A DNA stretch of 62,794 nt, filler included, from Sphacelaria rigidula (Eukaryota), in the NCBI GenBank assembly GCA_964200075.2. It is 11 parts of 11 records of this genome, joined end to end, with 100 filler letters (N's around TTAATTAATTAA, not from the genome) between each part and the next. Parts side by side here need not be neighbours in the genome. Positions count along the whole stretch, not along the records: positions 28,591 to 34,208 come from CAXNAA020025816.1; positions 34,309 to 39,926 come from CAXNAA020025817.1; 9 more parts are not named here. One strand, written 5' to 3'. Both the position numbers and the translations under genes were made by a program. Below the pieces are notes generated by a model. It saw only the letters and a list, made by a program, of their open reading frames with translations. It was not told the origin of the DNA and did no database searches. This document shows, piece after piece, positions 385-41,132 of the stretch; the stretch's first letter is position 1, and the number at the start of each line of letters is the position of its first letter.

Positions 385-682
385 ACAAAACAATGATTCC
401 GTGAGATTGAGAGTCTAGGATACGATTGAGAGTGACAAGGGGTCAATCAAATGAGTGCAATAGTTTCAGTTCCGAAATGCCCCCCCGGGCCTCAAACGAG
501 GCCCGATACGCTTTTCTGTAGAAAGCTCGCCACTGAAGCCTTTGATATTCCTGAGTAGGATATCGACGTGTAGCTGTAAGCTCATGACGGTAGTGGTACA
601 GGCAAAGAAAGAGCACACGCAAACTGAAGAATTGGTCAAGTTAGAGTGAACAATATAACTCACTCTCAATCAACGCTAGACT
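385..682. repeat. Dispersed repeat with subterminal inverted motif GATTGAGAGT/ACTCTCAATC
   Basis: Reverse-complement matches at about 29130-29265, 51880-51970 and 28591-28625. Class unknown, possibly a non-autonomous DNA or rolling-circle element. Confidence 0.55.
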
Positions 683-789: not shown

Positions 790-1419
790 CATGACTCACG
801 CCGAAACACGCAACGTATGAGGGCATTCCCCCCTACCCTCCATCATATCTGGCGATAGGTGATCTGCTACGCACGAAGTCGCCAAGGGATTTCCCGCAAG
901 GGTATGATTTGCAATCTGCACAAGAAGCGTTTCGTTGTATTGACCTTGCTAGATATCATCGTACCCGAACCCCTATACTCTTCGTGTCAGGGATACGGCA
1001 GAGTGATCGAGTCAACCATTACTTTTCAACGAGAGTTCTCTAAACGAACACCTCGGAACATGACATTGAGAGCATACTCCGCTCCTCCACTCATCTACCC
1101 GCCCGCCCTCCGCTCTCGAATTCACACCAAAATCCATCAAATACAGTCGTTTGTGTTGCTGCAATGCACCCATATAATCCATGCCTGAATATCCTGCAAG
1201 CTCACACGTGCAAACTTCGAACCCATCCACCAACTCCACCTGCCTCTCAAGTCGACGTACTGTTCTCCGAACAAGTAACACACTACCAGCACATGCTTCC
1301 CACGACCTTGCCCGCCCCCTACTCCTGGCCCGGCGAAAACCCGGCCTGCTCCGTCTCGGCTTTTTAGGGATGCGAACTCAATGGTCTTATGACGACAGCA
1401 TGCAAGATCATGAGTACAC
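790..1419 (+). mobile_element. Degenerate 5'-truncated non-LTR retrotransposon (LINE family C) in the EF-hand intron
   Basis: LLDIIVPEPLYS resembles the post-RT segment of the LINE at 27580. Ends in the family 3' motif GGGATGCG..TCAATGGTC..GCATGCAAGATCATGAGTACA followed by a C/T run. 5' boundary approximate. Confidence 0.6.
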
Positions 1420-2659: not shown

Positions 2660-3000
2660 TACTCGTGATCTTGCACGCGGTAGTTAGTCATCTGACCATT
2701 GACCTCGTATCCCTCCAAAGCCTGGGCGGACCACGCCGTGTTTTCGCCGGACCAGGCTCGCAATCGATCACCAAGCGCGAAGCGCCGTGATGTGCTCGGT
2801 GAGTCGCATGAAGGGTAAGCTGCATCCTGCTAAGATTGTTCGGTCCGAAGTGTACTGATTATCTTACCTGAGAATGACAGCGTACGATGATTTGCTTCAT
2901 TTTCTGAGATCACCACTTCCAGAAACAGCCACGGCTTGCGCGCTGCCTCACAGATGTCGCACCATTTAAACACTTCGTAGTTTGGTCATCCCCTCTGCAC
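2660..3000 (-). mobile_element. LINE family C 3' fragment ending at a long C-run
   Basis: Aligns by eye with 22873-23078, 31125-31352 and 34688-34989. The 3' end abuts the G-run at about 2647-2658 (C-run on the element strand). Confidence 0.75.
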
Positions 3001-5618: not shown

Positions 5619-5718
5619 NNNNNNNNNNNNNNNNNNNNNNNNNNNNNNNNNNNNNNNNNNNNTTAATTAATTAANNNNNNNNNNNNNNNNNNNNNNNNNN
5701 NNNNNNNNNNNNNNNNNN
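5619..5718. other. Artificial contig linker (44 N + TTAATTAATTAA + 44 N), one of ten
   Basis: Identical 100-nt six-frame-stop linkers also occur at 11337-11436, 17055-17154, 22773-22872, 28491-28590, 34209-34308, 39927-40026, 45644-45743, 51361-51460 and 57078-57177. Confidence 0.99.
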
Positions 5719-8300: not shown

Positions 8301-8365
8301 CAACGTGAGGGAGCTCACTGACAACGGAGAGACGGCTAGGTTGGCTAGAGCTGTTGCGTGCAGCT

Positions 8366-9924
8366 ATGGCAACGCGCAAAAAAGTGGGTGATGGCGATGC
8401 AGGCGAAGAGGTGAAGTTGAAGTTCACTGAGCTTATTCCTGCAGGATCGCTGAAAGCCCCAGAGTACGAACAGCAATTTAGCGAAAATGCGTCCCGACGT
8501 TTTTATCAGAAATACGTCGAGCATAAAGAGGCGGTCAAAATGAACAACAAGGGACGTAACATGCAGGCCGTCCTACTGACTGTTACTGAACCGATGCCGA
8601 AGCACACCCGTGCGTGTTTGTCACGCGCGATTTTTGACGGATACGTGCTTGACGAAGATGATCTCAAGGAGGCACTAGGCCGACACGCGAAATGTTGGGA
8701 AGACGAAGATATTGATCCTTCAGTTGCTGCTGCTGGAGTGCGGAAAGCGTTGGCGGCCCGCAACGAGAAAACTGCAATGGGAAGAGTAGAAGGGCAGTGG
8801 AGTGCCCTGGAGGAATTTTTTGCGGAGAATACTAGCGCTGAGCGTGCGTTCCGCGCTGATGTGTTATTGTGTGTTGTCGTCCCATTTATTCTGGACGCCA
8901 GTCTACGGGGATATGTGGGCGCATCAGCCGGGGTCACACAGGAGGGAGGTCGACACAGGAGCTTTTTTCTTTTCTATTTGTTTTTAGTACCCCACCTTCC
9001 TTCTGCGGTGCTTGCCGTTTTACTTTTTATCGCGAGAGGGGTTCAGCAGTCCCTTCCCTCGTCGACCGTTAAGTCGAATTTTGTGTACCCACGACATAGT
9101 CGCTCTCCACTGTTCGGATTGGTGTAAAACAAATCCAAGACCGCTCCGGGGATCGATCCCCACAACTTAACCGTCAGAAGATTATGAGGTTACCAACTGA
9201 GCCACCGGGGCGACCTGCTCAGTTGGTAATACAGGTTTCAAACCAGGACCCGCTCAAATCATAACTCGGGAAATGTTGAATGGACTGACCCCCCCCCGAA
9301 TTCAAAACTAAAGTCCTCAACGTGTTGAACATGAAAAGGGGGTGGAAGGAGGTCCCTGGGCTCGTGTTTAACACGGCTCGGGAAGCAGCGGAGGCATGGA
9401 AGACGGTGGAAGCGGCAGATAAGCAGCGCCGTCAGCAGCCGCAGCTGAAACAAAGGAGTGGCAGCGGGACTTCCGGAAGCAAGCGCCAACCAAATGGTGG
9501 AACAACGGCGAGCAGTGGAAATGGCACTGCCAGTTCCGGGAAAACTCGCAAACCAGGCCCAAACTATGCAGGATGTTTCATATGTGGAAACAAGGGCCAT
9601 TTCCGGAAGGATTGCAAGCAGCAACGCCAGGCTGGTGCTGCAAAACGTAGTGACGGTGGGCAGACGACGGCTGGCGATAAGCAGCAGCAACAACAGCAAC
9701 TGTCGCAGGGCCCTGGACAGGTGCCTTGCGGAGGGGGCACGAGTCCCGCCCCTACAGGGGCTGTATTTTCAGCCGATGGACAAATTGCTCCCAGCCAGGG
9801 GGCGACGTTGCCACCAGAACCGGTCGTTTCTACTGGTGGCGTGCAGCAGACCATGTCATCGCACTCGTTCCCGGGTTTGAACTCTGTGGCGATGCCAGGA
9901 TGGAGATCGCTCAAAGCGGGTTAG
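8366..9924 (+). pseudogene. gag: Gypsy gag, disrupted by a SINE insertion and a frameshift
   Basis: ATG at 8366 (MATRKKVG...). CCHC zinc knuckle CFICGNKGHFRKDC near 9575-9615. SINE at 8861-9215, extra C in the run at 9289-9297, TAG at 9922-9924. Confidence 0.85.
8861..9215 (-). mobile_element. Full-length tRNA-derived SINE (family A) inserted in gag
   Basis: Minus strand GGTCGCCCCGGTGGCTCAGTTGGTAA (A box) ... GGGATCGATCCC (B-box-like), with a (CA/CAA)-rich 3' end. Confidence 0.85.
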
Positions 9925-11275: not shown

Positions 11276-12446
11276 ACAACAAATTGTGCGAATTGAGGTT
11301 TAACTCCGAGTTGAGGTTCAAGCCTAAAACAGTGCTNNNNNNNNNNNNNNNNNNNNNNNNNNNNNNNNNNNNNNNNNNNNTTAATTAATTAANNNNNNNN
11401 NNNNNNNNNNNNNNNNNNNNNNNNNNNNNNNNNNNNACTGCTCTGCCCTCCTCTGTTAACCACAGCAACAGCGAGATGGGAAAAAAAAAACAGGCAAAAA
11501 TAACAAGGACAAGACCAAGACGCTTGTGTTGTAGTTGATTCAACTAAGAGCTGAAAAAAAAAAACAGGTCAGCACAGAAACGAACACAGGAAGCACACAA
11601 AGCACACGAACACACACCAAGAGCAACGCAAGAAAAGGAAAGAAAATAAAATAAAAAATAAAAACAGCAAAGACAGCAACGAAAACGAAAACGAACAGAA
11701 AACAAAAACAAGGACAAAGACGAAGACAAGGACAACGAAAAACAAATCGAGGGAGCGGAGGGAAGGGGTTGACGCTACAATACTGTACATGTATGGTACA
11801 GTACAGCACAGCGCAGGACAGCATAGCACAGCACATCGGTCAGAATATCCAATTGTTAATATCGTACCCAAGGGGAAGCATCATCGAGGGGATGACTATC
11901 TTGGATTCCTAATGGCGAGTTTCCTCTGGCGAGTATCATCATCCATGATAATTATGGTACGTGTACCTCACGACCACTGCTGGCTTTGCAGCGAATCAGT
12001 CAACGTGCGGCATCAATCACTCAAAACCAACGTCCTTGAGGGGTGGTATGTACGCACGCTCCGAATACCATATCCATATTTTTTCTCGAATGGCGAGAGA
12101 CCAAGCAGCAGATGTTCCAGAGTCCCAAAAAACACGGAGCAGCGATATAGCACATATATGCAACTCCCGCAACAGCAACACATACGACGGAAGATATGGG
12201 AGGATCGTCGGCGTCGCACGCTCATATTTAGCAGGGAGTACAATGCAGTGAACTCCCCGGGGTAATAATATAAAACAATGACGTACAGAATATCCCTGAA
12301 CGATCTAGGGCCGAAGTTCTTGAGAGTAGGGCGGTACGCGCACTTTGCCAAGTTGACAGGGTGATTTAGTGGGTTCAACCCCCACACTTGCCTTGAACAC
12401 AGCTTTCCAAACACTCGAGGCGCCTGCCACACACATGACTGCCGCA

Positions 12447-12582
12447 CACCCTGGACAAAGGGTTATATCGTCAAAAATGTACTGTGTACAGTATGGAATC
12501 TATTGTCTGCATTTGCAATAGGCGCAATAGTCGATACTGTACGCGGTACACTTTTTGACTGTGTGTTCTGTTGTCCAGGGTG
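12447..12582. mobile_element. Short palindromic MITE (TIR CACCCTGGACAA)
   Basis: caccctggacaa ... ttgtccagggtg. Related copies at about 15466-15605, 29270-29398 and 39440-39555. Confidence 0.75.
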
Positions 12583-13510
12583 GGGACTGCCGCACGGCGG
12601 TCTAGCTCAGCCTGCGGGTAATCGGCACGCGAACCCTTTCGCGGGGGTACGTGTTGGGTGGGGTTTACCCCCCCTTCGTTTTAGTAAAAAAAAGAGAAAA
12701 TGGACGATATGATGGGGTCCTGCGTGAAATTACTGACTGCACCGTGCCCTTGTGCACTCACTCTCCCGTGTTTCAAAAAATGCCCAAGTAGAGGTACAAG
12801 ATGATTATTATATCGCTGCCTGCACTGTCTGAAAGCACTAACCGCCTTGTACTGTAGTGTGCAGAAAGATATCACTATATATACTGTGTTGTGAAGATAA
12901 AGTGATGTCGTTAGTTACACCATGGACGTACTGTAGTGACTCTACTGGCTGTGTCTATGGCACACCGGATGAACGATCCATGTACACTGGGACATGTGCT
13001 GACCATAACGTCGGATAGTGACGCTGTACTGCTGTCTGTCCACGACATACACGTGTTGCTCCCGAGTACTTCTACCTCAAATAGGTTTTTGCAAGCGTAG
13101 TACGATACCATGCACGGCGCTCAGTGGATCAAATTTCACCACTTCACAGTGCAGAACAGCGCTTCTACAGTATCCATGATTACATACAACACGGCGGTCT
13201 GGACGACTCGGGACAAAGGTGGGCATGAAAAAGCATCAACTCGCTGTACTAGTTGAGCCGAATACTCAGTAAACCCGGATGGGGAATACTTACAGGTCAC
13301 CTAGCAATTCTGATTCTGTAATTTCTCAGACGGTAACTGAATTGTGTCCTCAAAAATACTACAAATACATCTGCCAGCAGGCAGGCGTCAATGCTCGGGG
13401 GTGGGGTAGGTGGATTGAGAGGGTTGCAAGGGACGAACGAATAATTATTCGTCTGAACATTCCTTGTTTTTCAGTGTACTACTTCATCCCTACCGTGCTA
13501 CGGAGCACAA

Positions 13511-15424: not shown

Positions 15425-15639
15425 TTGATTCGTACGGTACGAATCAATTACACTACATGACAGACACACCCTGGACGATAGATTACATCATATAAAAAAA
15501 AGTGCACTGCATACAATATCGACTATGGCGTCTATCGCAATAAACAATAGATTCCACACTGTACGCAGTACACTTTTTGACAATGTAATCCATTGCCCAC
15601 GGTGTGCACTACAACCAAGCAAAATTTTCCACACGTGGG

Positions 15640-22872: not shown

Positions 22873-23078
22873 AATCAGTAGGCCTCGGGCCGAACAATCA
22901 TAGCAGGATGCAGCTCACCCTTCATGCAACTCGCCGAACACACCACGGCGCTTCGCGCGTGATGACTGCGTGCGAGCCTGGTCCGGCGAAAACCAGGCGT
23001 GCTCTGTCCCGGCTTCGTAGGGATGCGAGGTCAATGGTCTTATAAATATGGCATGCATGATCATGAGTACACCCCCCC
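22873..23078 (+). mobile_element. LINE family C 3' fragment ending in a C-run
   Basis: ...gggatgcgaggtcaatggtctt...gcatgcatgatcatgagtacaccccccc. Confidence 0.8.
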
Positions 23079-23859: not shown

Positions 23860-24284
23860 GTATACTTCGTAACCACTATACCCGCGGTGCGCCACGACCA
23901 TTTTACTAGAGTGCCAACGTGAACGCTTGTGTGGTGCTTGCGTGTGCTACAATCAATTCTTTACGTTCCGGACCCAACCTCTAAAATTGATCGAGTGATT
24001 GTCGCACATGAGCTGATCCCCTCTTAGTAGGAATTCAACCGTCGTCACAAGATGGACGTGCCCAAGGTAAATAAAACGGGAACGTTCGCTAAACTGCGTG
24101 AATTAAATCCCCACACTAAGAGCTCTACGTGAATAAAAGGTGATGAGCCCTCGACAGACAGGTGCGATGATGTACTCTTGTGTAGGGTGGTATCCAAATC
24201 ACCCCCCCACCCCCGACCCACTCTCTAGGCTCCTGGGTTGCGCTCGAGTGGCAACTACGCTGTATCAACAAGCCACCAGAAAGC

Positions 24285-25090
24285 TAGACATGAAATAGAC
24301 GGCCGGTCACCAGACGTATACAAGAGACCGACACTAGATTATAATTATATAATTCCCTAGACCAAGAGAGACAATAGACATGAACATACTCAAATGGGTC
24401 ATTCTGTTCTCCCGTACTAAAACGCAGACCTGATATGGACATGACATGAAGCAACTTACCATGTCCCTGTGCACTAACCAGAACACAGCCTGGATATAGA
24501 TGTGAAATAACTAAGCTTTTACAATTTCTCTTTTCAATACGAGAGCACAGCCCGGACATTGACATGAAATGAAGAAGGTCAGCAGCTATATTTTTTCAAG
24601 CCCGTATATAGACACAAAATAGAGTCCTAACCATTTTTTCCTTTGCAATATCGGAACATAGAGCGGATATAGACATGAAATAACGAAGCAAACGAGATTT
24701 TCTCTGCATTACGAGAATACAGCCGAGACATAGACATGATATAACGAAGAAAACTATTTCTTACTTTGCGCCACCGGAACACAGCCCGGACATAGACATG
24801 AAATGACGACGTCTGTCACTTTTTTTCTCAGCACTACCAGAACAGCCCGGATGCAGACATGAATACCGCCCGGAAAAAGACACGAAATAAAGAAGCTAAG
24901 CATTTCCTTGAATTGTCGGAGCACAGACCGGATGTAGACACGAAATAAAGAACCTGACGAGATTTCCTTTGCATTATCAGAACACAGCCAGGAAATAGCA
25001 TGATACAACGAAGCAAACCATTTTTTACGTTGCACCACCAGAATGCAGCCTGGGTATAAAGATGGGATAAAGGAAGTAATCATTATGTAT
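24285..25090. repeat. Degenerate minisatellite of about 60 bp
   Basis: Recurrent gaacacagcccggatatagacatgaaata..gaagc..ccatttttt units, roughly a dozen copies. Confidence 0.8.
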
Positions 25091-26059
25091 TTCCTCATAC
25101 CGAAACAAGAAACAATCGAGATTCTGTCCCCACATTACAGCGAAAGCAAGATGTGAATCGAAGACCAAAGCCTAGATATGTAAGCAATAGCTTGAAGGTT
25201 GACCACCTTACACGCCAAATCGAAAACACAGCAACAATATAACAAGTGCCCATGTAATAAGATCACCTCGACATGTCAAATTCACGCGAAGGTTGGGTCT
25301 GGTGATGAGATACCCGGAAAATTGTACCGATTACCGGTGGGTGGTGGAAATCTGGTAAGACATTATCGCAAAATCTCGACATGAGATGCATGGGCGTCAA
25401 ATGAAGGGAAGGGGTGGATGCTGCATGATAAAATTGTCAAGACCTGCTGCACTCATGAAACCAACGATGAACGACCATATGAACACCGAGAAGGAGCACC
25501 AAGCGGTACATAGATATGTCGAGATCTTGAAGGATACAAGCTTGTACAAAATTTGAGGGAGTCATTGGCCAAGGTATCGGCAGCGAAGGTGTACTCGGGA
25601 GCACAAGGGGAGTAGCGGCCGATGGTGAACCGTTTATGGAAAAGGAAGAAGTGTCGTAAGGGACATCCCGATGTGTAAATCAGGCTTTGTGGTATGCAAG
25701 CTGTCCTTGAAACTCACACGATGAAAACGACCTCCCCGGAGGAAACTAACGAGTACAGCAGTGGGGAAAGAAGAAAAAAGATAGGATCGTGGGACATCTA
25801 AATGGTGTTCCGTGGCCTGGTATAAACGTGGGGTACTCGTGTCAAGGATGTTGAACTTGGCTTCAGCCTACGAGCCCGTGTTGGAGACATTGTTTCAGTG
25901 CCGGAGAGCGGGCAAAAGAAGTGAAAGACACCAGATCCGCATCAAGTACTAGGATTGGGATACCCCAGTACCTTGCCCACGTCCCACTTCAATATTGAGA
26001 ACAAACAAGCTGGAGATACTCTCAACACAGATCGAGAGGGAGACGGTGCGAAAGAGTAA

Positions 26060-28412
26060 ATGGAGAAATCAGAGTGGACGGGTAAAGCACCAGTAGTGCT
26101 GGGTTTTGGAGTTCCTGGCGATATGACGCAAATGATGTTCAAGGGGGAATGTGATGAAGTAGGACAATACCGTTCGGCAATAGGGAAAGTAGAAAAGGAG
26201 GAAGAACACTTCCGAGTCACGCTGAAACAGAGAGAAAGCTAGGAGTGGGAGAGCATAGAGAAGAGTAAAGTAATGGCATAGGCTAGAACGGTGGGATGGA
26301 GACTATGTACAACCAATGGAGAGGCGAACATAAGATGAAGCCCTTGGGTAAACGGAGGTGAGGGGAAGTAATAACGAGTGATAATGTCCTGAAGGGGAAG
26401 AGGAGGGAGAGTAGCGGCCCAAAGCAAATAGACAATGGCCGAACCGGAAAGAGAAATTAAGCAAGGGAGAATAGAAGTAAAAACGACGGAGAGAGAGCAA
26501 CAGGCAGAAGGAGAGTAGATGGTGATTCGAAAAAGGAAGCTGAGAAGAAATCATGGAACGTGTATGGATTCGCTGCGGAATAGAGCAAAACATCAGAGAT
26601 AGACGAACAAGCAAGTATGCGTGACCTAAATATAGTGGGAATCCAAGAGTCGTGGGAGAAAGGTTGGGCGGGAAAAGGATACAAAACTGTACAGAACGCA
26701 TCGATAGAGAAAGGGCGGCAGGGACAGAGTCCCAAGGACAGGGGAGTGGAGTGAGTAGGGTTTTTAGTGAAGGAATACCTGTGTGACATCATGGAAGTGA
26801 TTGAAGACCAAAAAATCGACAAGAGCATATGGATAAGGGTACCAGGAGAGCGGGGAATGAAGGGCTGTTCTTGGGAAACATCTATATGCCTTAAGGATAG
26901 AAGATTACGGCAAAGGGTATACGAAGGAATTTCAGGAGAGATATCAACAGATGTGCAAAGTTGTAGAAGGCAAGGCCAACTATTGCTAGTGGGAGATTTT
27001 AATGCAAGGATTGGACAAGCAAGCCTACTAAGGGATAGCATTGGGCAATACGGGTAAACGAAGTAGAATATGAATGGGGTAGAGATGTTGAAGTTCCTTG
27101 AGAATAGCGAGATGGAGGCGCTGAACAATGAAGTGAAAAAGCCAGAACCGGTATGAACTAGGCGATGCATACACAAGTAAGAGAGTCCCATTTTTGACTA
27201 TATAGTGAAAAAGCGTGGGGAAAATAGCGAAACGGAAGTACATATATATGCAGCCGACACGGAAACTACGGATGATGGCCTAATGTGGATAGACAGCCAA
27301 CAGGCTAGAGTAACAGGAAATGGGCGGGGTAGGAAGATGTACAGAGGGAAAATAGATAAACAAGAAATAAAAGTAAGCAGCAAGATTTCTAAGGAGAAAT
27401 GAACAAGAATACAGTGAAGTTTCCGCTCGTAAATCAGTGTACAAACCTTGGCGTAGTGATATAAAAACCTGTTTCTTGGGATGCACACGTAGATAACGTA
27501 GTAGGAGAGGGTAGGGCACAGATAGGCAAGACGGACATGATCCTCAGGGACTCGCATGTCGATACCAGGATTGAGAGATATATTCTGATGAATGTTATTG
27601 TGCCGGAGCTAGAATATGCAGAAAAAGAATGAGAAGGAAACACGAAGTTCGTGTAGCAGCTGAAAACAGTACAGATGATAGCAGCTATGAAAGTACACAG
27701 GTGCTCAAAAACGACAAGTAGTACAACTTTGAGAGCAGCGTTGGGGTTGTACCCACCAAAAACAAATACAGACACGAGGAGATCGAAAGGGCAATGAAAT
27801 GTAAGGAACATGTCGAGGAAGAGATTGTCAACCATAGTCGATAGGGCTGTATGAAAAAAGGGAACGAAAGGGCAGGCTGGAAAAAGATGGGATAGCGCAA
27901 TCGAGAGCATGATTGATTGATTGATTTATTGTCGCACTCTCACTGACCTCCCAGGGATCCAGCCGTTATCACATGATAGATGCACCCGAGACAAACAAAA
28001 AACTGAAACACTTGCTGAAGAAAAAGAAGGAACGGAAGAAGAGAATATGGAAGGATATTGGAGGAAACCAAGACGCAATAATGTCCATAGGTGAATAAAA
28101 AATAAAACTAGAAGACATGGTCGAAACAAGGGGAAAACAAGCTCTGAGACGGAAAATGGATGAGAAGAGCGCCTGAAGATATACAGAGGGTTGAGAGGAG
28201 GGATAGGAATGAAAACATGTCTGCACGACCCAATGGACTACGAGATAGAGAATAAGATGTTTGAACTGTCTTGTGTAATGTATGGAAGATACACGATGGG
28301 CGCCGAAATTTTGGAGGTATCTCTGTCTGGAGTTGGAACGGTCTTCCGTCTCGAAAGGGGTGCGTGGTCCATAGGTAAATGACTACGGCAAGCAACAAAT
28401 GAGTAACCCCCC
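26060..28412 (+). mobile_element. Degenerate APE-endonuclease LINE (family D), RT core deleted, ending in a C-run
   Basis: EN motifs SWNVYG, IVGIQESWE, GFLVKEYL and LVGDFNARIG. Jumps near 27420 to post-RT KNLGVVI...SWDAHV...ILMNVIVPELEYA. C-terminus SRKGCVV...TASNK* then GTAACCCCCC. Many stops. Confidence 0.88.
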
Positions 28413-28419
28413 TCCCCCC

Positions 28420-28490
28420 TGCTCCGTGTCGAAAGGGATGCGTGGTCAATGGTCAAACGACTGAGGCAAGCAGCAAATGAGTACGCCCCC
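28420..28490 (+). mobile_element. Second, extremely truncated family D LINE 3' end in tandem after the first C-run
   Basis: tcgaaagggatgcgtggtcaatggtcaaacgactgaggcaagcagcaaatgagtacgccccc. Confidence 0.75.
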
Positions 28491-30289
28491 NNNNNNNNNN
28501 NNNNNNNNNNNNNNNNNNNNNNNNNNNNNNNNNNTTAATTAATTAANNNNNNNNNNNNNNNNNNNNNNNNNNNNNNNNNNNNNNNNNNNNGTATCATCCA
28601 CTCTCAATCTCACGAAAACACTGTTCATAGTGGACGAAGACGAAGGGAAAACTGAAGAAAAAAATCAAGAAAAGCAAAGCACAGAGAGAAATGGCCGGTC
28701 TAAAACAAAAGAAAGAAAGGGAAAAAAAAAAGGAAAAAGGAAGAAGCCCCATGACTGCAAAATGTAAACACAAAGTACGTTATATTACAATACAGCCCTT
28801 AGCGAAATATTCTCATGCTTGAACTGTCGGCTTTAGTTGAAAGGACGCTCACTGTTTGTAACGTATTGTGCGTTAATGACACAAACCCAAATAAGTCGCC
28901 GAAAGGCGGTCAGCATAGGGGGGCACAGTGTATCATCATCGGGATGACAAGGAAGCCGTCGAGCCTACCAAACATGGAGGGGTTTATGCTACATATCGGT
29001 ACAGCAGGAGAAGCCGTCGAGGATACCATGTGTAAACCTATACCAAATCGAGACGCCATGCAACACACTAGCGAAACGTGGCCCCGAATGTGGCACCGTT
29101 CAACAACCTTTAGCCCAGATTGAGTGTCTCTAGTAGCGTTGATTGAGAGTGAGTTTCATGATTCGCTCTAACGTCCACCATTTTCCATCGTGTGTGTGTG
29201 CGCGCGTGTGTGTGTTTGCCTGGAACACTGTCGTGTGCTCACAGCAACACGTCGATATCCCACCCAGCATGGACGAAAGATTACATCGTCAACAAATGTA
29301 CTGCGTACAGTATCGACTTTTGCATCTGTTACAATGGACAGTAGAATCCATTCTGTACGCAGTAAGCTTTTTGGCAATGTAATATCTTGTCCAGGGCGTC
29401 ATACCCTACTCAGCGATACCAGAGGCGTCAGTGGCAAGCTACTACAGAAGGCGTGTAAGGCCTGGACGGCCATGTCGGCAGTAAAATCGTTTCGGGCATC
29501 AATCATCCACTCATTTCTGGGAAATCAGGAGTTCTAGATTCCTCCTGATTGACGAGGCCAATGAAATAAGAAGTATACATTGGGTTCGGTTCATCCCACG
29601 ACCAAGAGCTTTTATTCAACCCGCTCCTCGACTAACCCCTCGAAGTATCCCCAAAAAACTACCAGTCCATAAATCGATTAAGAGGGTATGCCGTTTTTGT
29701 GGCTTCTCCCTCTCAGTCAAATCCTGGACGTCCATTTCGGCGAAAATGTCGTTCGTGTTCAAGCGATTTCAGTAGGAAGACAACAAACGCTGCCCTATGT
29801 TCACGTGAACATACCGGGACGGACCAATGACCTCAGAAAAACGTCGGAGGGCACCAACGAAAAACCCCGCAGGCAGGTACTACGGTAGGGGAGTACACAT
29901 ATTTTTCGAGATTGGAGTTGTCAAGAGCCCTCCATCTCATCCCAAAGACGAGATATGAAATATGTGACAGCACCTCACGATTGGCCTTTCATTGGGCTAG
30001 GGATATTCCGAATGGTTTTGAAAACGGGAGGGTCCTGACTCATATCTTTGTGTAGCTAGCTCACAACTGTAAGAGCCCCTGACTGAAAAATATCTGGGCC
30101 CGAATGCGCACCCCTTATACCGTATAGCATGAGTCACCATAGTACTGTACCTTCGAGGAAGCTCATAAACCGGAAAGGCAAAACTGTGCACAGGGCTGTA
30201 ATACTGCATTACCATGTGTTGATCACACGGCTTTCACATGCCCAGCCCATTACACACGGCCTGCCGTTCGAAACGATTCCACATTGAGA

Positions 30290-31052: not shown

Positions 31053-31124
31053 CTGCGTGCATTGGGGCAAGGAACAGGGGGCGACGAGGCAGCGGGGCGG
31101 GGCGGGCGGGCGGGGGGGGGAGGG

Positions 31125-31352
31125 TTGCTCATGCTTTTGCATGCCATAGTCATTAGACCAGTGTTCTCGCATCCCTACAAAGCCGGGACGAAACACGCCG
31201 GGATCTCGCCGGACCAGGTTCGTAATCACCAAGGGCGAAGCGCCGCAATGTCTTCGGAGAGTTGCATTGAGGGTGAGCTGCATTCTTACAAGCTTGTGTT
31301 CGGCTCGAAGTGTAGTGATTATCCTATCTTGCATAAGTTTGGCAGCCTACAA
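31125..31352 (-). mobile_element. LINE family C 3' fragment flanked by G-runs on both sides
   Basis: G-runs at 31112-31120 and 31354-31365. Sequence matches the other family C copies. Confidence 0.8.
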
Positions 31353-32046
31353 CGGGGGGGGGGGGCAGGCAACTTCGTCTACAAGTGTAAACGTCAACAG
31401 TAAAGCATCAGTTGTACGTTTGAACCATAATCATGAGCCTCTGACAAGATTCACGCGGCACAGTGAGTCAACAAGGCCCCCACCCCCGCTCCCCTCCTCC
31501 CCGTCCCCCCCACTAGACGAGACAGTCATTTTGAACTATTGTCATATGTATTGATGATGCCCCTTACCCTGCGAGGACCAGCCCGCAGCCAAGGGCAGGG
31601 GGTAAGCACCCGTTTGATTTGCTTGAGGACGAATGGTTGACTGGTCTGTTTGTCGTTCTTGTTCAGGTAACCCCATTTATTCGATCAGTATCTTTTTTCG
31701 TCTTCATTTCTCGAGTCTCTCCAGCGAGTGTCTCCGTGCTATTTACCTTGAGTACGTCTGTCTATCTTGTGGATAATGACCACGGCTGGATCATGACTCC
31801 TTGGGGATCAGGTCTTGCGCCATAATCAATCAGTCAACCAACCAACCAACCAACCAACCAGAGAACCATTGATTGACGTGCTACAAATCCACCCGTGGTC
31901 ATCAGATACAAACCTAGACATGCTTGACCAAGCTATACAAAAGCGGACACGCTTGCTGAAGGCTACTCAACAAAAAAAACATATATTTTCAAGGAAAGGG
32001 GTGAAGAGGTGGGGAGGTAGAGGTACAGCAGCCGATGTGGGGCTAC

Positions 32047-33726: not shown

Positions 33727-34687
33727 TGAGCGTCGACAGTAGCTGGTTGCGGGGGTGGTGTCGGGATACTCGCCCCCCCCCCCCCCCCCCCCCCCCCCCC
33801 AACCCCCCCCGCGGCGGGGCAAAAAACCGACAAGGAGGAGNNNNNNNNNNAAGCTGTGGACCACAAAACCAGGGCGGGGGGGGGAGAGGCGGGGGGGGGG
33901 GGGGGGGGGGCGGGAACGCCGCCCCCCCCCCCCCCCCCCCAAAAAAAAAGAGACTGGTTGGAGGAGGTAAAAACATGCGAATCGAAATGACAAGAGCTGA
34001 GCACACCGAGCAGCAGGAACCTCCAACGCCTGGGATCGTTCCCGCCGATGTCGTTCACATGAGGCGCTCTATGCAGTCTGAAATCAGCTACCTTGCGCTG
34101 TATGGCCATTTTCCTACTGGCAGTGTCGGGACTGGTTTGGGGGGGGGGGGGGGGGGGGTGGTTTATATTTTGCGCTTTTCTTGGGTTCTCCGCACTTGTC
34201 CCCCCCCCNNNNNNNNNNNNNNNNNNNNNNNNNNNNNNNNNNNNNNNNNNNNTTAATTAATTAANNNNNNNNNNNNNNNNNNNNNNNNNNNNNNNNNNNN
34301 NNNNNNNNTAGGAAATTAAAACTTGAAAATATAAAATTTTTTAAATATAGGTTAAATTAAAAAAATAAAAAAAAAAAAAAAAAAACGCGGCACCGCGGTG
34401 GTCTGACATGTATCACGTACGTCTGTCGAGTAGAACCCGTGAAGACGAAGTTGAGGGTTCCAGCAGATATAGTCTTCTTGATAGACTTGTACTGCTATCT
34501 GAGTTCCGCCATCGGCGAGAGGATGTGAGTAGCGAAGACAATATGGTGAAAGCTAACGCGGTGCGGGCACGCGGATGAAGTTCGCTTCACCAAAATGTGC
34601 GGCATGTACTGGGGGGACAGACGGGTTGATCCCTTCAGGCTACGGAATCGTCACGAGAAAGGGAAGGCGACACAAGTATGATGGGGG

Positions 34688-34989
34688 TACCCACGATCTT
34701 GTATGCCGTAGTCATAAGACCATCAACCTCGCATCCCTACAAAGCCGGGACGGAGCACGCGGGGTTTTCGCCGGACCAGGCTCGCAATCAATCACCGAGC
34801 GCGAAGTGCCGTTATGTGTTCGGTGAGTCGCATGAAGGGTGAACTGCATCCTGCTAAGATCGTTCCGCCCGAAGCGTATTGATCATCTTGCGTATGGATG
34901 ACAGCCTCCAATGACTTGCTTGATTTTCTGGTATCACCACTTCCTGAGACACCTACGAGTTCCACACAGCCTCATGGGTGTCTAACAAT
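34688..34989 (-). mobile_element. LINE family C 3' fragment with perfect 10-bp TSD TATGATGGGG
   Basis: TATGATGGGG at 34677-34686 and 34990-34999. Confidence 0.85.
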
Positions 34990-35008
34990 TATGATGGGGA
35001 GAGGGGGG

Positions 35009-35295
35009 CATACTCATTTGTTGCTTGCCTTAGTCGTTTGACCATTGACCACGCATCCCTTTCGNNNNNNNNNNGTTCCTACTCCTAATGGAGACACCTC
35101 CAACATTCCGGCGCTCATCACGTTTCTTCCTTACACTAACTACACCAAAAGACCTTTTAGATTACTTATCCCCGTCCTGTTTCGCCAGCTGTGGCCACCA
35201 TTTATCTCCAAGTATAGCCATCGTTTTCTTCCTACTGTCCAATGCATCAAACGATTTCATGCCATCTTCGTGTACTTCCCACATTTCCCCCTCTG
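35009..35295 (-). mobile_element. LINE family D 3' fragment (ORF2 C-terminus)
   Basis: Minus strand FDALDSRKKTMAILGDKWWPQLAKQDGDK...RNVGGVSIRSRN...RKGCVVNGQTTKASNK* then GTATGCCCCC. G-rich runs at both ends. Confidence 0.8.
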
Positions 35296-35997
35296 GGGAT
35301 GGGGGGGGCACAGTACAGATTAATGTTCAGTCGGATGGAAATTTTCGGATTTTTAACACTTGATTTGAGTGTGAATACCGATATTCGGATCTTTAGTGGG
35401 GCTAACAGTCTCAAGTTCCCCTAGCTTGCGCAGAACGCGTTCTTGTCTAAATTGGCGCGTGCGGCGCCGATTTGAGGTCTACCAAAGCCACACTTTGCCT
35501 AGGGAACACTTCGCACCCCCCTCGCCCGAGGGTTCTCGGTATGCCTTGGGTTGGGGTCAGGGTTAGCGTTATTTCGAGATCATGTATTTCCGAGATTATT
35601 CTTCCCGACCAAGTGGTAAACTGACCTCGGGGGGTAGGGCCCCGCTCTTTAGATATGGATGGAACTTGGGTGCGTTGGCCAAGAGACCGATCGGCGGCCG
35701 AAAGTTTTGACTTTTTGCGCTTTGCTCTCCCCTGACTTATGGGCGTCGAAAGAGCCGCAAAACCCAACGCCCCTCGCACCGAATAGGCATGATCGATGAT
35801 TGTTCACCTGCGTGGCGAAACACGGCGGTGGCGCTGAGATGGTAGCATGGGTATACAACTGTGGATCCCGATTGATTCCTTTTGTGCAGACACACATCCT
35901 GCCTTTTGAACCTTCGCTGTGATGTCGAATCGAGGGACGTCGAAACCCGTCGACGGATGCTCTACGGTAACCTGGTGACGTGGGTGCCTACTTTTTA

Positions 35998-36183
35998 TTA
36001 CAGGCGGCGCGCTGATCTTGGGGAACCGCCGTCAAGCATGTCCACAAGACGATCATCATTGTGGACAGTGGGCAGCGGACACCACTGGGGCAAGCGCGAT
36101 CTTCCGAATTGATCTTTTCGGCAGGTCTCGACTCCCTGTCGGCGCTCTTCCCTCTCGACGGTTGCGATCTTCGATAATCTTTC
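35998..36183 (-). CDS. Candidate terminal exon, unknown protein
   Basis: tcttcctttgccaacgcag|GAA acceptor. ERLSKIATVEREERRQGVETC...RRL*. No recognisable domain. Confidence 0.3.
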   Translation of the reverse strand, partial: ERLSKIATVEREERRQGVETCRKDQFGRSRLPQWCPLPTVHNDDRLVDMLDGGSPRSARRL

Positions 36184-39100
36184 CTGCGTTGGCAAAGGAA
36201 GACCGTAGCCGATTCCTGACTCGGAGGAGAGATTTCGTGAATGAAGATATCATTCCAAAACACACGTACAACCAACACTGCGGTAGCTTCAGTTGCTATT
36301 CACAGATCCTACACAGTGTTTCTTGCTACGTCGATTTAGCCATCGAAAGCAAAGTATTAGATTGTAGCCGCCCCTCGCTTATCTCTGCATGCTGCTATCT
36401 CATCCCCCACAATGAAAACATACATGGCTGTTTAATGCGGTCATTATATTGATTGGTCTATTCAGACTAGCGCGTTGGAGCCTGGGGCCTGACGATGGAC
36501 GAAATGCGTGTTTTGCTGGCTGTCGTTAGTGGTGTACTCAGTAGTGGTCGTTAGTGGGGAGAATGACATATAATCAAAATCAACAACGGACTGAAACAGC
36601 AGCAGTCGTGCGGCTCACATCCCATATTGGTCGAACATAACAGTACAAAACACAGCAGTATAGAACACAGCAGTACAGCGCAGCGCAGCACAGTGCAGCG
36701 CAGCACCATGCAGTATATGCCGATCTGTATACGAACGTGTCACCGACAGGCGTAACTTCCAGTACGATGCGTGTCGGGGAAGTCATGAGTCAGGAATGAT
36801 CACGAGTGAACAGCAAGCGAACCTGTCTGCGGAGAGATGTGCCAGCCGAATCTACGTGTCTTACCAGCATGAGGTGCCAGCGATTGCCGCTTCTTTTTGT
36901 ACGTTTATTCATGTGTGCATATCGTACGTGCTAGCTGCTTGAGCCCTGGAATGCGCTGCTGCCTGTTCCATGATCTGTGATCTGTGATCCGGTGGGTCAG
37001 TCCGATGGACACGATTGGCATTGTCGATCAGAATGATGTAGAAGAGTAGTCTTGTACAGCCAGGCAAGGCAAAGAGAAGAAAGTGAATTGATGTGGATAT
37101 GAAACCTCACGACCAATCACCAGAACTGTACGTACGTGGGTCAAAAACACGTCAACTGGGTAGGAAATCCCACCGCATGTAACGGCCAAAACATATAATA
37201 CATATGCCTCACCACTGTAACATAAGCCCAGTACCGTAGACCTTACTTTCTGATTATCCTATTCGCAGCAACACGGCCAGCCGTTGGTCGAGGAGACACG
37301 CAGGAGTGGTGAATTCTTTAATTGCCGTATCACGTTGCTCGCTGCCTATAGCTGTTTTTTAGTGGTGTGTGTACGGGGTAGGGGCCTGCATCAAAATGAC
37401 GGGGGCGGAGGAGCCCAGGAGGTTAGCGATACAACTCTAAATTGTAATCAAGCCGCATCACAACTGCATGTTAGCTACACACTCGAGTGGAAGAACTATA
37501 ATCTTCGAAGTCCCACTAACACCGGTTGAACAGCGTGTTAGCGGAGAGGCACCAGGGCCTGTCTTGACAAAAACGTCAATCGAAGATCGAACACGAAAAC
37601 ATATGCGGTGCTGTGATTGGCCAACTGCTCCTGAGCCGCAACAAAACTACTTTCGGTGTTTCCGAGCCCTCCTGTAGGATGATTATAACACTTGCTTGCC
37701 TCAGATCGACTTGAAATTAAAAAAAAAAAAACTTGAATCGACACGCAAAACGAGGACCGGAGGAGAAAAACACAGATGAAAAATCGCCCCACAGATGTGA
37801 CAGTGCGTGTCAGAGGACGTTTCGAGATGTAGCTCTGTGCCCATCATCATTTCAGGGCATGTAACATCGCGTACCGACACCCACAAAAAAACGTGCACGC
37901 ATCCACAGATAGTCTGATACCACGCCAATGCAAGGAAGGTACGTTGATAAAGTGCGTTTGGTTCCGTACTACGCGAGCATCAATGATCCATGATAATAGT
38001 TGGGTCGTCTTTCCGTCTCCAGAGAGTATGAATTTGGCACAGTTTGTGCTGTGCGGTTTTGCGTAAGCGCCATTTTCTGACGGCCCGGAGACAAAACAAG
38101 CAGACCGTACATACGTGGTTGACCCTTTAGCCCAGCCCCTCGCAGATCATCCAATATTGTCCATGGTCATTTTCTAGCGTCAGATCTGCTGGGGTTTTCT
38201 CAAGAGGCACAACACGCCTATTTACATGAACAACGTGGATGTTGAGCATTTGCATGGGAACTCGTGCATGGGAATCCATCACCGTTTGTCTGGCCAAGTT
38301 ACGTGTGTTGTTTGTGTACGTTTTGTTTTGATGAGTAGGTGGCATTGTACATGCTGTCATGCGCAGGTAACAGTCACTTTTCAAGTGAACAAAGCGCCGA
38401 TTCAAAAGATGGGCACACGTGGAGCCGTCAGGGGGTTCACTTACTTGCTGACGAATCCAGCGGCGGGCACACGACATATACGTACCCAGGGTGAATACAT
38501 TTTCAGTAGGGTTGTAAGGCCACCTCTTGTCGAGACGCGAAAAGTCAGTTCCAAAAGCAGCTTCTCGGATCTCATTCAATTCAGAACGACCAACAACTCC
38601 GAGTCTTCTCGGAAACAAAAGCCATCAACATCGGCCATGAATTTTATTTCGATTTCGTTCCATAATACAGTGCTGTTCCTTTTCCGTAATGCGGAGGCGT
38701 TTCCATCGGAGACATGGTAGTATTTGTACGTTCCAGTTGAAAAAGTCATCTTCCGCAGGTCAACTTTCTTGCGCTCAGAGCACAGGTTATTGTGGGCAGA
38801 GGGGTGGTCACAGGGCAGCACGGGCAGCTCGCTTGACGGGCGACCTGCTGTGGTGGAGAAAGTCGCACCACGCACGAAGTACGTCATTGCGCAAATCGCA
38901 AGCGATTGCTAGTGATCACCTGCCTCGCATCACGAGTACAGGAAAAAAATGGTGCAGGGTTCTCTAGATGCGGCCCCCACCCCGTGCGCACTGGTCTTCT
39001 TGTGCTAATTGCTGTCTGCGTGTAAGACTGCGTGCCGACCATAGCAGTGACGCCTTGGACGGTGCTGCCTGCTCGCTGAACAGCAGCAGGGTACAGGGTG

Positions 39101-41132
39101 ATATGGCACACCACAGCACGTCACATCCTTGGCTTATCCCTGTACCGTGGTGATTCCCCGCTGTCTTATGCAGTTTGACACAACATGAAACGCCGACATC
39201 TTGTCGTGCAGCATCTGTGTACGTGGGATGCCACACCTTGCTACCCCACATTTTACAGCTGTCTGTATTGCAACGGTGTGCTGTGTTGGGTTAGGTCGGC
39301 TTCCGCAGAAGACGTACACTCTTCGGGCTGCGACACTTCTGCACTTTCGTTTCAATAACTAGTGGGTGGTATAGCTAGGATGTACTCGACAGTACAGTAC
39401 TGTGTACTGCACGGTACGAAGCTTGAAGCTCGTACATTATACACCCTGGACAAAAGGTCACACCGCAAAAAAGTGCAGTGCGTACAATATCGACTATTGC
39501 GTCTAATGCAATGGACAATAACTTTCATTCTGTACGCAGTACACTTCTTAGGGCTGTGAACTGGATTAGTTCGTACTGGCGATGAAACTGGAGCTGGAGT
39601 TTACCTGAAACCGGCGATGGGGACTCCAGTTTATCCAGTTTAATTGAAGTTTGTTACCGGCTATGTTTATACCAATTTTAATATACGAGCTGGGCCAGCC
39701 GAGAAGCGATTCTGCAGTTTGCAGGCCCATTACGCGACCCATACTTGGAGCTGGACCCTGAAATTTGGTATGAACAATAAGTAGGGCAAAATAAAAAAAA
39801 TGACTGGCGTACACAAGTTTTTTTTTGTTTTTTTCATGAGTTAGGGGCATTTTACCGATATCTGAAAACTGATTATTGCCCTTAACTCATGAAAAAAAAA
39901 AATCCCTTGTGTACGCCAAGAATTTTNNNNNNNNNNNNNNNNNNNNNNNNNNNNNNNNNNNNNNNNNNNNTTAATTAATTAANNNNNNNNNNNNNNNNNN
40001 NNNNNNNNNNNNNNNNNNNNNNNNNNCTAGAGGCATGAGTTCTGCGTATCCCTCTGTCGAAGCGGCACAAGCGGCGGTAAGGTCGTATGTAATCGACGGT
40101 AACGAACAAGCTGTGTGTAGACAGCTGATCCCCGTCGCGGAAAAATGCCCAGAACATGTAAGGGAGTATGGAGGGGCAGCTGCTGCGATGCTGCATTCGA
40201 TGAGGCGTACCGTACTGGATATACGGCGCAATGCCCATGCTGTTCCAAGAGAATTTGCCGCTCGTAACACAGAGGGAAATTGCGGCCCACCCCGACCACA
40301 AAGGGCCGTGTGGCAAGGTGATGGGGACAATATCCAAGGCGACTCATACTGCTTGATACATCTGTACATCACCTGATGCGCACAACACCCGAATTATATC
40401 ACAGACAGTTTGTACCTGCACCTGAAAATAGATGGGATTAAAATTTTGGTCTTCCTCTAACCCTGCGGTTACATACATACGTGGATTTTTAGCAACGTGA
40501 CTCCGCTGTTTCATACACACGCAGGACACGTGATTCCGAAACCAGCCTCATCGGTCGTTCTGGAGGCCCAGTCTCATGAGGTTTAATCTCATATTTTTTG
40601 TTTTTTGTCATATTTCTACTATTTACTTCCTCCATCCCCATCCCCGTTCCTGCGGATGAGTCCGTAGTGTCGTTCAGTCGTGAGCGCTCAGCTCATCTCT
40701 ACCCCAGTTTAACTCTCGCTTATCTTGTAAATTTGTATCAATCTCTCGATCAGCGCCCCCGCAGCCGGTAAGCCGCTGGAGTGCAGCCGCTGGACTTCCG
40801 TCGATTATTTGATGTCAACGGTCGTCCTCATGCTTTCCACGATCGAAACCGGTCAAATACACCTTTTCTGTCGAGATTCGAATGCACCACGACCTCGCCA
40901 CCCAAACCGTCTAATGAAGATGGTGGTGAGGGTGACGGTGATGGTGATGATGATGGTGGTGGTGGTGATGATATATGGGTTGAACCACCCGGGCGCAGCG
41001 AGATTCAGAGACTGTACATGATTAACATGAAGCATGCCACAAAGTTGATGCCTGTTGTTCGAACATACAGAAACATGCGGAATCATACCGCTAAACGCTG
41101 GCGTGTGACGTTTTTTGGCACGTGTATCACAG

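Follow-up and report, generated by a model that had tools for sequence, protein, structure and literature searches.

We analysed a 62,794-base stretch of the genome of the brown alga Sphacelaria rigidula (assembly GCA_964200075.2), here called the window, which carries two repeat families, A and B, that end at runs of C. Family B is a real single-open-reading-frame (single-ORF) retrotransposon of the apurinic endonuclease (APE) type without long terminal repeats (LTRs), that is, a long interspersed nuclear element (LINE). Family A is treated, on its sequence, as the non-autonomous partner of family B. A C-run follows every 3′ end, target site duplications (TSDs) start with the run, and copies are stacked in the same orientation behind older ones. 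We think it probable that both families integrate by target-primed reverse transcription (TPRT) at C/G runs, with a bottom-strand nick 3′ of a G-run and priming of that run on the C-run of a read-through RNA.

The window consists of 11 pieces of 5617-5618 nt, joined by linkers of the form N44-TTAATTAATTAA-N44 (the first at 5619-5718, then every 5718 nt). Together the pieces amount to 61.9 kb, with a G+C content of about 49%.

C-runs within target site duplications

Eight copies of the two families were found in the window. They are named here by their 3′ ends as 1419, 2660, 23072, 28405, 28485, 31125, 34688 and 35009, the ends themselves lying at 1418, 2660, 23071, 28406, 28485, 31125, 34688 and 35009. 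Copies 23072 and 28485 are interrupted by the end of a piece. The copies and their flanks are listed below; L076 is an intact family B copy found outside the window, and P0002 is the protein of a close relative.

34688..34989, minus strand: family A copy of 302 nt, 5′-truncated or non-autonomous, ending ...GTGGGTA (self-blast, alignment, nhmmer E=9e-20)
34677..34686, minus strand: 3′ TSD copy, CCCCATCATA (on the plus strand TATGATGGGG), an exact 10/10 match to 34990-34999
34990..34999, minus strand: 5′ TSD copy, CCCCATCATA, inside the 3′ flank of the B copy (exact match)
35009..35293 (or 35300), minus strand: family B copy, 5′-truncated to about 285-292 nt, C-terminal coding part (blastn, tblastn, boundary alignment)
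34995..35008, minus strand: 3′ C-run of this B copy, C6 TCT CCCC A (C6 TCTCCCCA), directly behind it
35294..35308, minus strand: 5′ C-run of the same B copy, C8 ATCCCCA, directly before it
25259..28406, plus strand: family B LINE, degenerate, with 5′ leader, N-terminal domain, APE and C-terminal part (blastn to L076, tblastn to P0002)
28407..28419, plus strand: C6 T C6 behind the long LINE, the insertion site of copy 28485 (flank inspection)
28420..28485, plus strand: mini-copy of family B that comprises the last 66 nt and has 94% identity to L076, followed by C5 and the piece end (self-blast, blastn, nhmmer)
31125..31353, minus strand: family A copy of about 229 nt, with 3′ CCCTC9 (31112-31124) and 5′ C12 (31354-31365) (self-blast, alignment, nhmmer)
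22873..23071, plus strand: family A copy, its 5′ side cut by the piece edge, followed by C7 (23072-23078) (self-blast, nhmmer)
1324..1418, plus strand: short family A copy of about 95 nt, with 5′ CCCCC TAC and 3′ CCCC TTC (1419-1425), TSD approximately CCCCT.C (self-blast, alignment, nhmmer)
2660..2966, minus strand: family A copy, at least 307 nt long, with A and C12 (2647-2659) behind it and no 5′ C-run (self-blast, alignment, nhmmer)

Copy 34688, which is 80-84% identical to other A copies by self-blast, was inserted 3′ of the family B copy 35009. A first-pass annotation of the window had reported a perfect 10-bp TSD containing the run around this copy, and the match is indeed exact (34677-34686 equals 34990-34999). 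The C-run lies within the duplication at its far end, 6 nt from the junction, and the duplicated sequence belongs to the tail region of copy 35009. Copy 35009 is itself 77% identical to L076 over 35294-34996 (blastn) and aligns with residues 1270-1360 of P0002 (tblastn). Its 10-N assembly gap at 35065-35074 is filled in contigs of public sequencing runs by the expected element sequence (AGACGGAGCACC... on the plus strand). Depending on where the 5′ boundary is drawn, its TSD comprises just C6-8 or else spans about 14-15 bp with two mismatches (C8ATCCCCA vs C6TCTCCCCA).

The remaining junctions follow a similar pattern. The annotation had also noted G-runs on both sides of copy 31125, and on the plus strand this copy does lie between G9 (within 31112-31124) and G12 (31354-31365). 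In copies 35009, 31125 and 1419 the C-run falls within the target duplication and no other element has its end in the 5′ flank, and copy 28485 was inserted in the C-run behind an older copy, the long LINE. Same-orientation stacking behind a C-run is seen for 28485 after 28405, and likewise for 34688 after 35009. In copies 34688 and 1419, and in 35009 if its boundary is at 35293, the run occupies the end of the TSD that is away from the junction. This is the expected place of the first-strand nick: read on the element strand, these TSDs open with the run, and the cut in the bottom strand would accordingly lie immediately 3′ of the G-run.

The 5′ junction can be read in six copies (34688, 35009, 31125, 1419, 28485 and 2660). 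In five of the six, at least four consecutive Cs occur within 16 nt upstream, vs 4.9% of random window positions, and a binomial estimate for this outcome at that background is ~2e-6. These counts bear on an alternative in which the C-run is the element's own tail, copied from its RNA and altered by slippage of the reverse transcriptase (RT), the target being unspecific and the 5′ runs stemming from older tails or microhomology; such a tail would be the single-nucleotide counterpart of the short-repeat tails found in stringent LINEs. We consider this unlikely. It predicts C≥4 at only ~5% of 5′ flanks, and it sits poorly with 5′ C-runs that have no element 3′ end before them (35009, 31125, 1419) and with runs that open a longer TSD 3-7 nt upstream of the junction (34688, 1419, and 35009 under one boundary). 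Run lengths on the 5′ and 3′ sides are also about equal, at 4/5 in copy 34688, 8/6 in 35009, 12/13 in 31125 and 5/4 in 1419, as expected if the target was duplicated and not if a tail was added. The same alternative draws support from the occurrence of tandem and stacked copies, and from copy 2660, where C12 is present at the 3′ end only.

A shared 3′ end followed by C-runs

The 3′ ends of the two families are closely alike. A 20-nt core, GGGATGCGNGGTNRATGGTC, has 7 matches in the window with up to three mismatches, vs 0.16 expected, and 7 were reached in 0 of 100 shuffles. An nhmmer profile built from 12 copies recovers exactly the eight window copies and nothing further at E≤10. From the core, all eight continue for about 35 nt to a (C/A)ATGAGTA-like end, and all eight finish with GAGTA, GAGCA or GGGTA, 0-2 further nucleotides and then a C-run, none of them with an A-run. 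This agrees with the first-pass description of eight 3′ ends that close with a GAGTA-like motif, a few nucleotides and a C-run in place of poly(A). In order of the 3′ ends, the runs are C4, C12, C7, C6TC6, C5 (cut by the piece end), CCCTC9, C5 and C6.

Copies on unrelated contigs, from marine metagenomes or metagenome-assembled genomes, end in the same way. A metagenome scan with the 20-nt motif returned 73 loci, among them three genuine family B copies (L013, L021 and L054), which end in GAGTACG or GACTACG followed by C8, C11 and CCTC7. A scan of prokaryotic genome bins gave one copy (L074/L076), which ends in GAGTACG followed by C13 and sits on a misbinned contig, the sole algal contig in its metagenome-assembled genome. 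No copy was found in a scan of viral contigs with the motif. When these four are added to the eight in the window, a C-run follows the 3′ end in 12 of 12 copies and an A-run in none; the prospect raised in the first-pass annotation, that most copies might end in poly(A), was not borne out. Nor do we see A-starting TSDs of the L1 type, as the TSDs start with C. The other 70 metagenome loci were set aside as a bacterial gene with a chance match to the 20-mer, which we think, from its protein context, is putatively ispG-like.

Families A and B have their last 55-100 nt in common. In family B, the TGA stop lies within ...AAATGAGTACG, 6 nt before the element end, leaving practically no 3′ untranslated region (UTR), and no poly(A) signal was seen at the family B 3′ end. 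A ..GCVVNG.. peptide overlaps the 3′ motif and is kept at 45-50% RT identity, whereas the ~40 residues that precede it are not. The nucleotides that encode this peptide in family B are also kept in the non-coding family A. Together, these two kinds of conservation suggest that the nucleotide sequence as such acts in cis. Strong conservation of the last 55 nt, common to a LINE and its non-coding partner, is also a feature of stringent pairs of a LINE with a short interspersed nuclear element (SINE), and to that extent it speaks for a tail copied from the RNA. Folding of the 3′ end with RNAalifold gave -6.0 kcal/mol, with a compensatory change in 0 of 14 predicted pairs, and single-sequence folds had z from -0.15 to -2.03.

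Among more distant LINE proteins (P0014, P0017, P0019, P0020, P0028, P0034 and P0010; RT identity 45-66%), a ..(G)C(V/E)VNG.. peptide occurs within about the last 20 residues, with no conservation in the stretch that precedes it. The protein P0019 continues past the peptide.

Family B, a LINE, and family A, its non-coding partner

L076 has an open frame of 1382 codons that keeps the endonuclease motifs GIQESW, GDFN and TDH, the FADD motif of the RT and a C-terminal Cys/His knuckle. The close relatives P0002 and P0004, from the set of brown-algal and marine metagenome LINE proteins, are full-length, have the same domain order as family B and match Pfam RVT_1, Exo_endo_phos and Exo_endo_phos_2. 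In both, an apurinic-like endonuclease (PF03372 and PF14529) stands N-terminal to the RT domain (PF00078, E=1e-30 to 2e-32). The frame, the Pfam domains and the kept motifs identify family B as a single-ORF APE+RT LINE, and the intact frame of L076 suggests that it is possibly still active. Other hallmarks of LINEs are present, as the copies have a 3′ end in common, are truncated to varying degrees at the 5′ side, are flanked by TSDs and lack LTRs. Copies measure 66, ~95, ~229, ~285, 302 and at least 307 nt, with one of at least 3148 nt, and all share the single 3′ end.

Relatives of family B with a named source come only from Ectocarpus sp. CCAP 1310/34 and Sphacelaria rigidula; many further relatives are marine metagenome proteins, and none bears a family name. 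Its C-terminal 214 residues are 67-69% identical to brown-algal LINE proteins, and an Ectocarpus protein matches its RT with 66% identity. A dinoflagellate origin was considered and rejected, as the spliced-leader motif of that group is missing and the related proteins indicate brown algae. The best solved relatives, found through the RT, are L1 ORF2p (77 bits) and R2 (73 bits), scores that do not discriminate between clades. The endonuclease alone matched no solved endonuclease at E≤0.05, and a protein search and an atlas look-up gave no named clade.

The long window copy (25259-28406) contains many stops, and its RT region (about residues 445-974 of P0002) is deleted. By tblastn, P0002 residues 8-444 align with 26066-27372, residues 975-1207 with 27417-28241 and residues 1318-1360 with 28271-28399; identity is 51% between 26365-27372 and residues 110-444. 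The first-pass claim that the shared 3′ end is attached to an APE LINE at about 26060-28412 is thereby upheld, with P0002 matching both the N-terminus and the endonuclease. DNA homology to L076 begins at 25259, and 5′ UTR repeats may extend the copy back to ~24220-24630.

Tandem repeats with GACATAGACATGAAAT occur in the 5′ region of this LINE (24426-25064) and in L076 (5100-5259), whose contig ends inside such a repeat; TRF reports a period of 62 at 24652-24809. Just upstream of the 5′ UTR repeats, at 24202-24219, lies C7 A C5 GACCC, which resembles the C6 T C6 at 28407-28419 and could be the 5′ TSD of the long copy.

Family A is known only as 3′ pieces of ~95 to 312 nt that are 76-85% alike. 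The first-pass annotation had spoken of two sister LINE families, and this stands for B alone: A has no detectable LINE coding sequence by tblastn or protein search, and tblastn with LINE protein found neither a match nor a LINE body. We considered whether family A might be the end of a LINE ORF, with a stop ~105 nt from the end in 4 of 4 copies, but we rejected this candidate: tblastn gave no LINE body, and the 59-aa peptide upstream of the stop matches no protein, although the latter is in itself weak evidence. A search for SINE heads found no tRNA, 5S or 7SL (tRNA search 0; Rfam 0 families). A ribozyme, suggested by CGAAA and CTGATGA-like strings, was likewise dropped, with 0 Rfam families matched.

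Abundance and flanks in public sequencing runs

Contigs of four public runs (X1, X2, X4 and X5) were aligned to 34309-36400 at 80% likeness. The numbers of aligned contigs were 89,500, 115,008, 57,895 and 20,715, respectively, with one contig per run on the unique flank. Summed depth, which does not equal copy number, reached 1.2-20 million in family A's final 70-nt bin; for the unique flank it was 13-70 (X1, X2 and X4) or less than 3 (X5). The part at 34309-34518 had no cover and is uninformative. Families A and B are plainly among the most abundant repeats. Depth drops steeply toward the 5′ side, as with 5′ truncation.

The flanks were read from loose ends of the contigs (best 24 of 4431 rows by support) and from joints (best 15 of 1041), where joints at less than 95% likeness can stem from repeats. 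Among these best 24 rows, the consensus before 35003 is 11-20 G on the plus strand (717, 738, 584 and 133 contigs), and before 35011 it is a longer G-run with at most one interruption (456, 495 and 317 contigs). At the family A 3′ end, before 34695, 21 G lie behind GTGTACTCAT (X2, 426 contigs). Behind 35064, the consensus is AGACGGAGCACCGT followed by G16 on the plus strand (X2, 1394 contigs); on the element strand this reads ACGGTGCTCCGTCT preceded by at least 16 C, and short B copies have a 5′ C-run too. Hundreds of contigs per run carry long C-runs behind the 3′ end, which counts in favour of the element's own tail. Taken by themselves, these flanks fit insertion into C-runs with all-C TSDs and also long templated tails, and are not decisive.

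All homopolymer loose ends, 13 of the best 24 rows, consist of G on the plus strand and never of C, a bias that speaks against artefacts from poly-G reads. That the runs reflect the poly-G tails of two-colour sequencers, assembly errors or chance is scarcely credible to us. Homopolymers are certainly error-prone, some pieces end in C-runs, and run lengths in contigs are unreliable. Yet the runs occur inside contigs with unique flanks and are always C on the element sense strand, in the window, in four contigs of other assemblies and in the 13 G-run rows just described. An artefact would be strand-neutral and not fixed at one position, and the motif count is far above the chance expectation.

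The joint 35064->35003, which corresponds to tandem short B units, was found in 12, 21, 6 and 0 contigs of X1, X2, X4 and X5, and the joint 34782->35003, a short A copy behind the C-run of a B copy, in 22, 22, 10 and 2. No join resembling an empty allele across copy 34688 was present among the best 15 of 1041 joints.

Truncation at the 5′ side is non-random. Many A copies start at 34782±2 (~95 nt) and many B copies ~66-80 nt from the end (ACGGTGCTCC), and these mini-copies are flanked by C-runs. Their start points may reflect microhomology with the C-run, a stop of the RT or a separate short transcript.

Density of C/G homopolymers

Counting both strands, the window contains 63 C-runs of at least 6 nt, the longest of 28 nt. 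C or G runs of at least 12 nt number 10 in 61.9 kb, which is unusually dense. Potential targets for the two families are thus abundant. Such a background invites a further explanation, in which elements enter at G/C runs by way of DNA structure or damage (G-quadruplexes, stalled replication) and the resulting nicks or 3′ ends prime. The density of long homopolymers is in keeping with this, as is the fact that 3 of the 20 linker-adjoining piece ends fall inside C-runs (28490, 34208 and 57178-57194), which suggests that C-runs are hard to assemble and that contigs often break at homopolymers. We nevertheless judge it quite improbable, because TSDs of 5-15 bp from the edge of the run indicate a staggered double nick, and because the intact copy keeps its APE catalytic motifs. 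Endonuclease-independent LINE insertions usually lack TSDs.

Very long C/G runs (16-28 nt) are present at 33773-33940, 34139-34208, 57186-57257, 51277-51330 and 83-105, and none adjoins a family A or B end. At 33891-33940, runs of opposite strands stand back to back, G20 and then C19.

A proposed model for integration at C/G runs

We propose the following sequence of events. The endonuclease would nick the bottom strand on the 3′ side of a G-run (5′-GGGG/N-3′), and the freed G-run would base-pair with a C-run in the template RNA. That C-run would be supplied by transcripts that run past the stop-proximal end into the C-run already present behind the source copy. A stop 6 nt from the end, with no poly(A) signal or tail seen, leads us to infer such read-through transcripts; the nick-site preference of the enzyme and the base-pairing step are likewise deduced from sequence. 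Synthesis of cDNA would start at or beside ...GAGTAC(G/A), with ±2 nt of play. A second nick 5-15 bp away would then duplicate the run, so that the new copy would have a C-run on both sides and the genome would gain one more target.

Copy 2660 departs from this scheme and could be accommodated as priming without a target run, the run of the source having been carried along. No C-run-containing TSD match was found upstream of this copy within its piece, and its run, being absent from its target, is read as having come from the template RNA. The 5′ boundary of copy 2660 depends on a single alignment with copy 34688. The first-pass claim of insertion at existing C/G runs is consequently kept for the copies with the run in their target duplication (34688, 35009, 31125 and 1419) and not for 2660. 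With five of six junctions, specificity for C/G runs looks like a preference, not a fixed site.

Several observations weigh against integration at existing runs. The best candidate TSD of copy 2660 is TGTTT (5 bp), which excludes its 3′-only C12, and the template RNA can apparently carry a C-run. There are only six junction pairs, two of which (34688 and 28485) fall within tail regions that belong to older copies; the 5′ boundary of 35009 is ambiguous by 7 nt in the boundary alignment; and the TSD of 31125 consists of Cs alone. Only 8 of the 63 C-runs of at least 6 nt adjoin family A or B elements, most long runs lying elsewhere. Finally, the long 3′ runs in the public data (at least 11-28 beyond the window match) fit an RNA-borne or slippage-extended C tail equally well.

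Comparison with known retrotransposons

In L1, the APE endonuclease nicks 5′-TTTT/AA-3′ and the exposed T-run primes on the poly(A) tail, which is all that mammalian L1 requires at its 3′ end. Our model keeps this scheme but exchanges A:T pairing for G:C. Families A and B resemble L1 in having an APE+RT ORF, frequent 5′ truncation and TSDs of variable length that start with a homopolymer complementary to the primer. They further share the mobilisation of a non-coding partner and same-orientation insertion into the tails of older copies. They differ in that the homopolymer is C/G, not A/T, with no poly(A) tail or signal seen, and in that family B is a single ORF whose stop almost coincides with the element end (6 nt). 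A conserved, stringent-like 3′ motif of 55 nt also sets them apart, as does a 3′ run about as long as the 5′ TSD copy in four family A and B copies. Poly-C tracts do occur inside the 3′ UTRs of lizard and frog L1 (PMC5381506), and those elements are still poly(A)-ended.

With stringent LINE/SINE pairs (L2/CR1/RTE types), the two families share a conserved 3′ end common to an autonomous LINE and short non-coding copies, a simple-repeat tail instead of poly(A), and a TSD start that matches the tail repeat, which suggests pairing between primer and template. UnaL2 and the I factor are LINEs of this stringent type with short-repeat 3′ tails. The differences are that the repeat unit here is a single nucleotide (C), that the run is duplicated within the TSD, and that a conserved 3′ stem-loop is not demonstrable (0 of 14 pairs covary). 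In RTE-related retroposons, the first base of the TSD is reported to be linked to the 3′ microsatellite; their signature is a T that opens the TSD and lies ~10 nt downstream of a stretch of T (PMC6007223). The T-start signature as given there is not the pattern of families A and B.

Insertion into a multi-copy simple repeat is also a habit of LINEs that target microsatellites or telomeric repeats. These include Dong, Waldo, Mino, Kibi, Koshi, TRAS and SART. In R1, TRAS and SART, read-through RNA containing the target repeat is thought to aid priming. Several such LINEs use a restriction-like endonuclease, whereas family B has an APE. The microsatellite-targeting LINEs also include Togen, at (TG)n, and some HERO families (PMC4640811). 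The targets in the relevant sections of that paper are di- to multi-nucleotide, with no G/C mononucleotide case found there or in the literature searched. More generally, and in line with the first-pass annotation, which knew of none, we found no LINE described as having a C tail or as targeting G/C runs in the literature searched; Repbase or Dfam may hold entries.

Other features of the window

Repeats are numerous in the window by self-blast, and Pfam matches among its ORFs are rare: one of 19 scanned has a zinc knuckle. This CCHC zinc-knuckle ORF (Pfam PF00098; 9289-9924, plus strand) lies beside a 272-aa ORF without a match (8309-9127, plus strand), and may be the gag of another retroelement. 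A family of ~140 nt resembling miniature inverted-repeat transposable elements, with terminal inverted repeats GCACACCCTGGACAA ... TTGTCCAGGGTG, occurs at 12444-12584, 15497-15607, 29263-29399 and 39442-39549 and has no relation to the C-run elements. A separate repeat family at 389-487 (plus strand) and 51866-51968 (minus strand) ends in ...GTTTCAGTTCCGAAAT(G/A), then CCCCCCC or CCCCTCC, with G next; possibly this is another element whose end lies at a C-run.

Implications

We tentatively suggest, as a possibility that may well not hold, that a brown-algal LINE lineage with a ...GCVVNG... end has swapped A/T for G/C in the logic of TPRT, and that its self-seeding has filled the genome with C/G homopolymers. 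If true, such a lineage would explain the homopolymer density, the stacks of tandem mini-copies and the assembly breaks at C-runs. Integration at C/G runs, if it holds, would provide a natural test, far from animals, of the general TPRT rule by which a homopolymer freed by nicking has to pair with the 3′ end of the template, with G:C in place of A:T. With one ORF and a 55-nt cis element, the element would be a tractable system for studying the co-evolution of endonuclease preference and template end. On the practical side, repeat finders that expect poly(A) would then misplace the ends of a repeat family that ranks among the most abundant in this genome. Such integration would also account for the dense G/C homopolymers that break assemblies, and could shape the landscape of G-quadruplexes and i-motifs in these algae.

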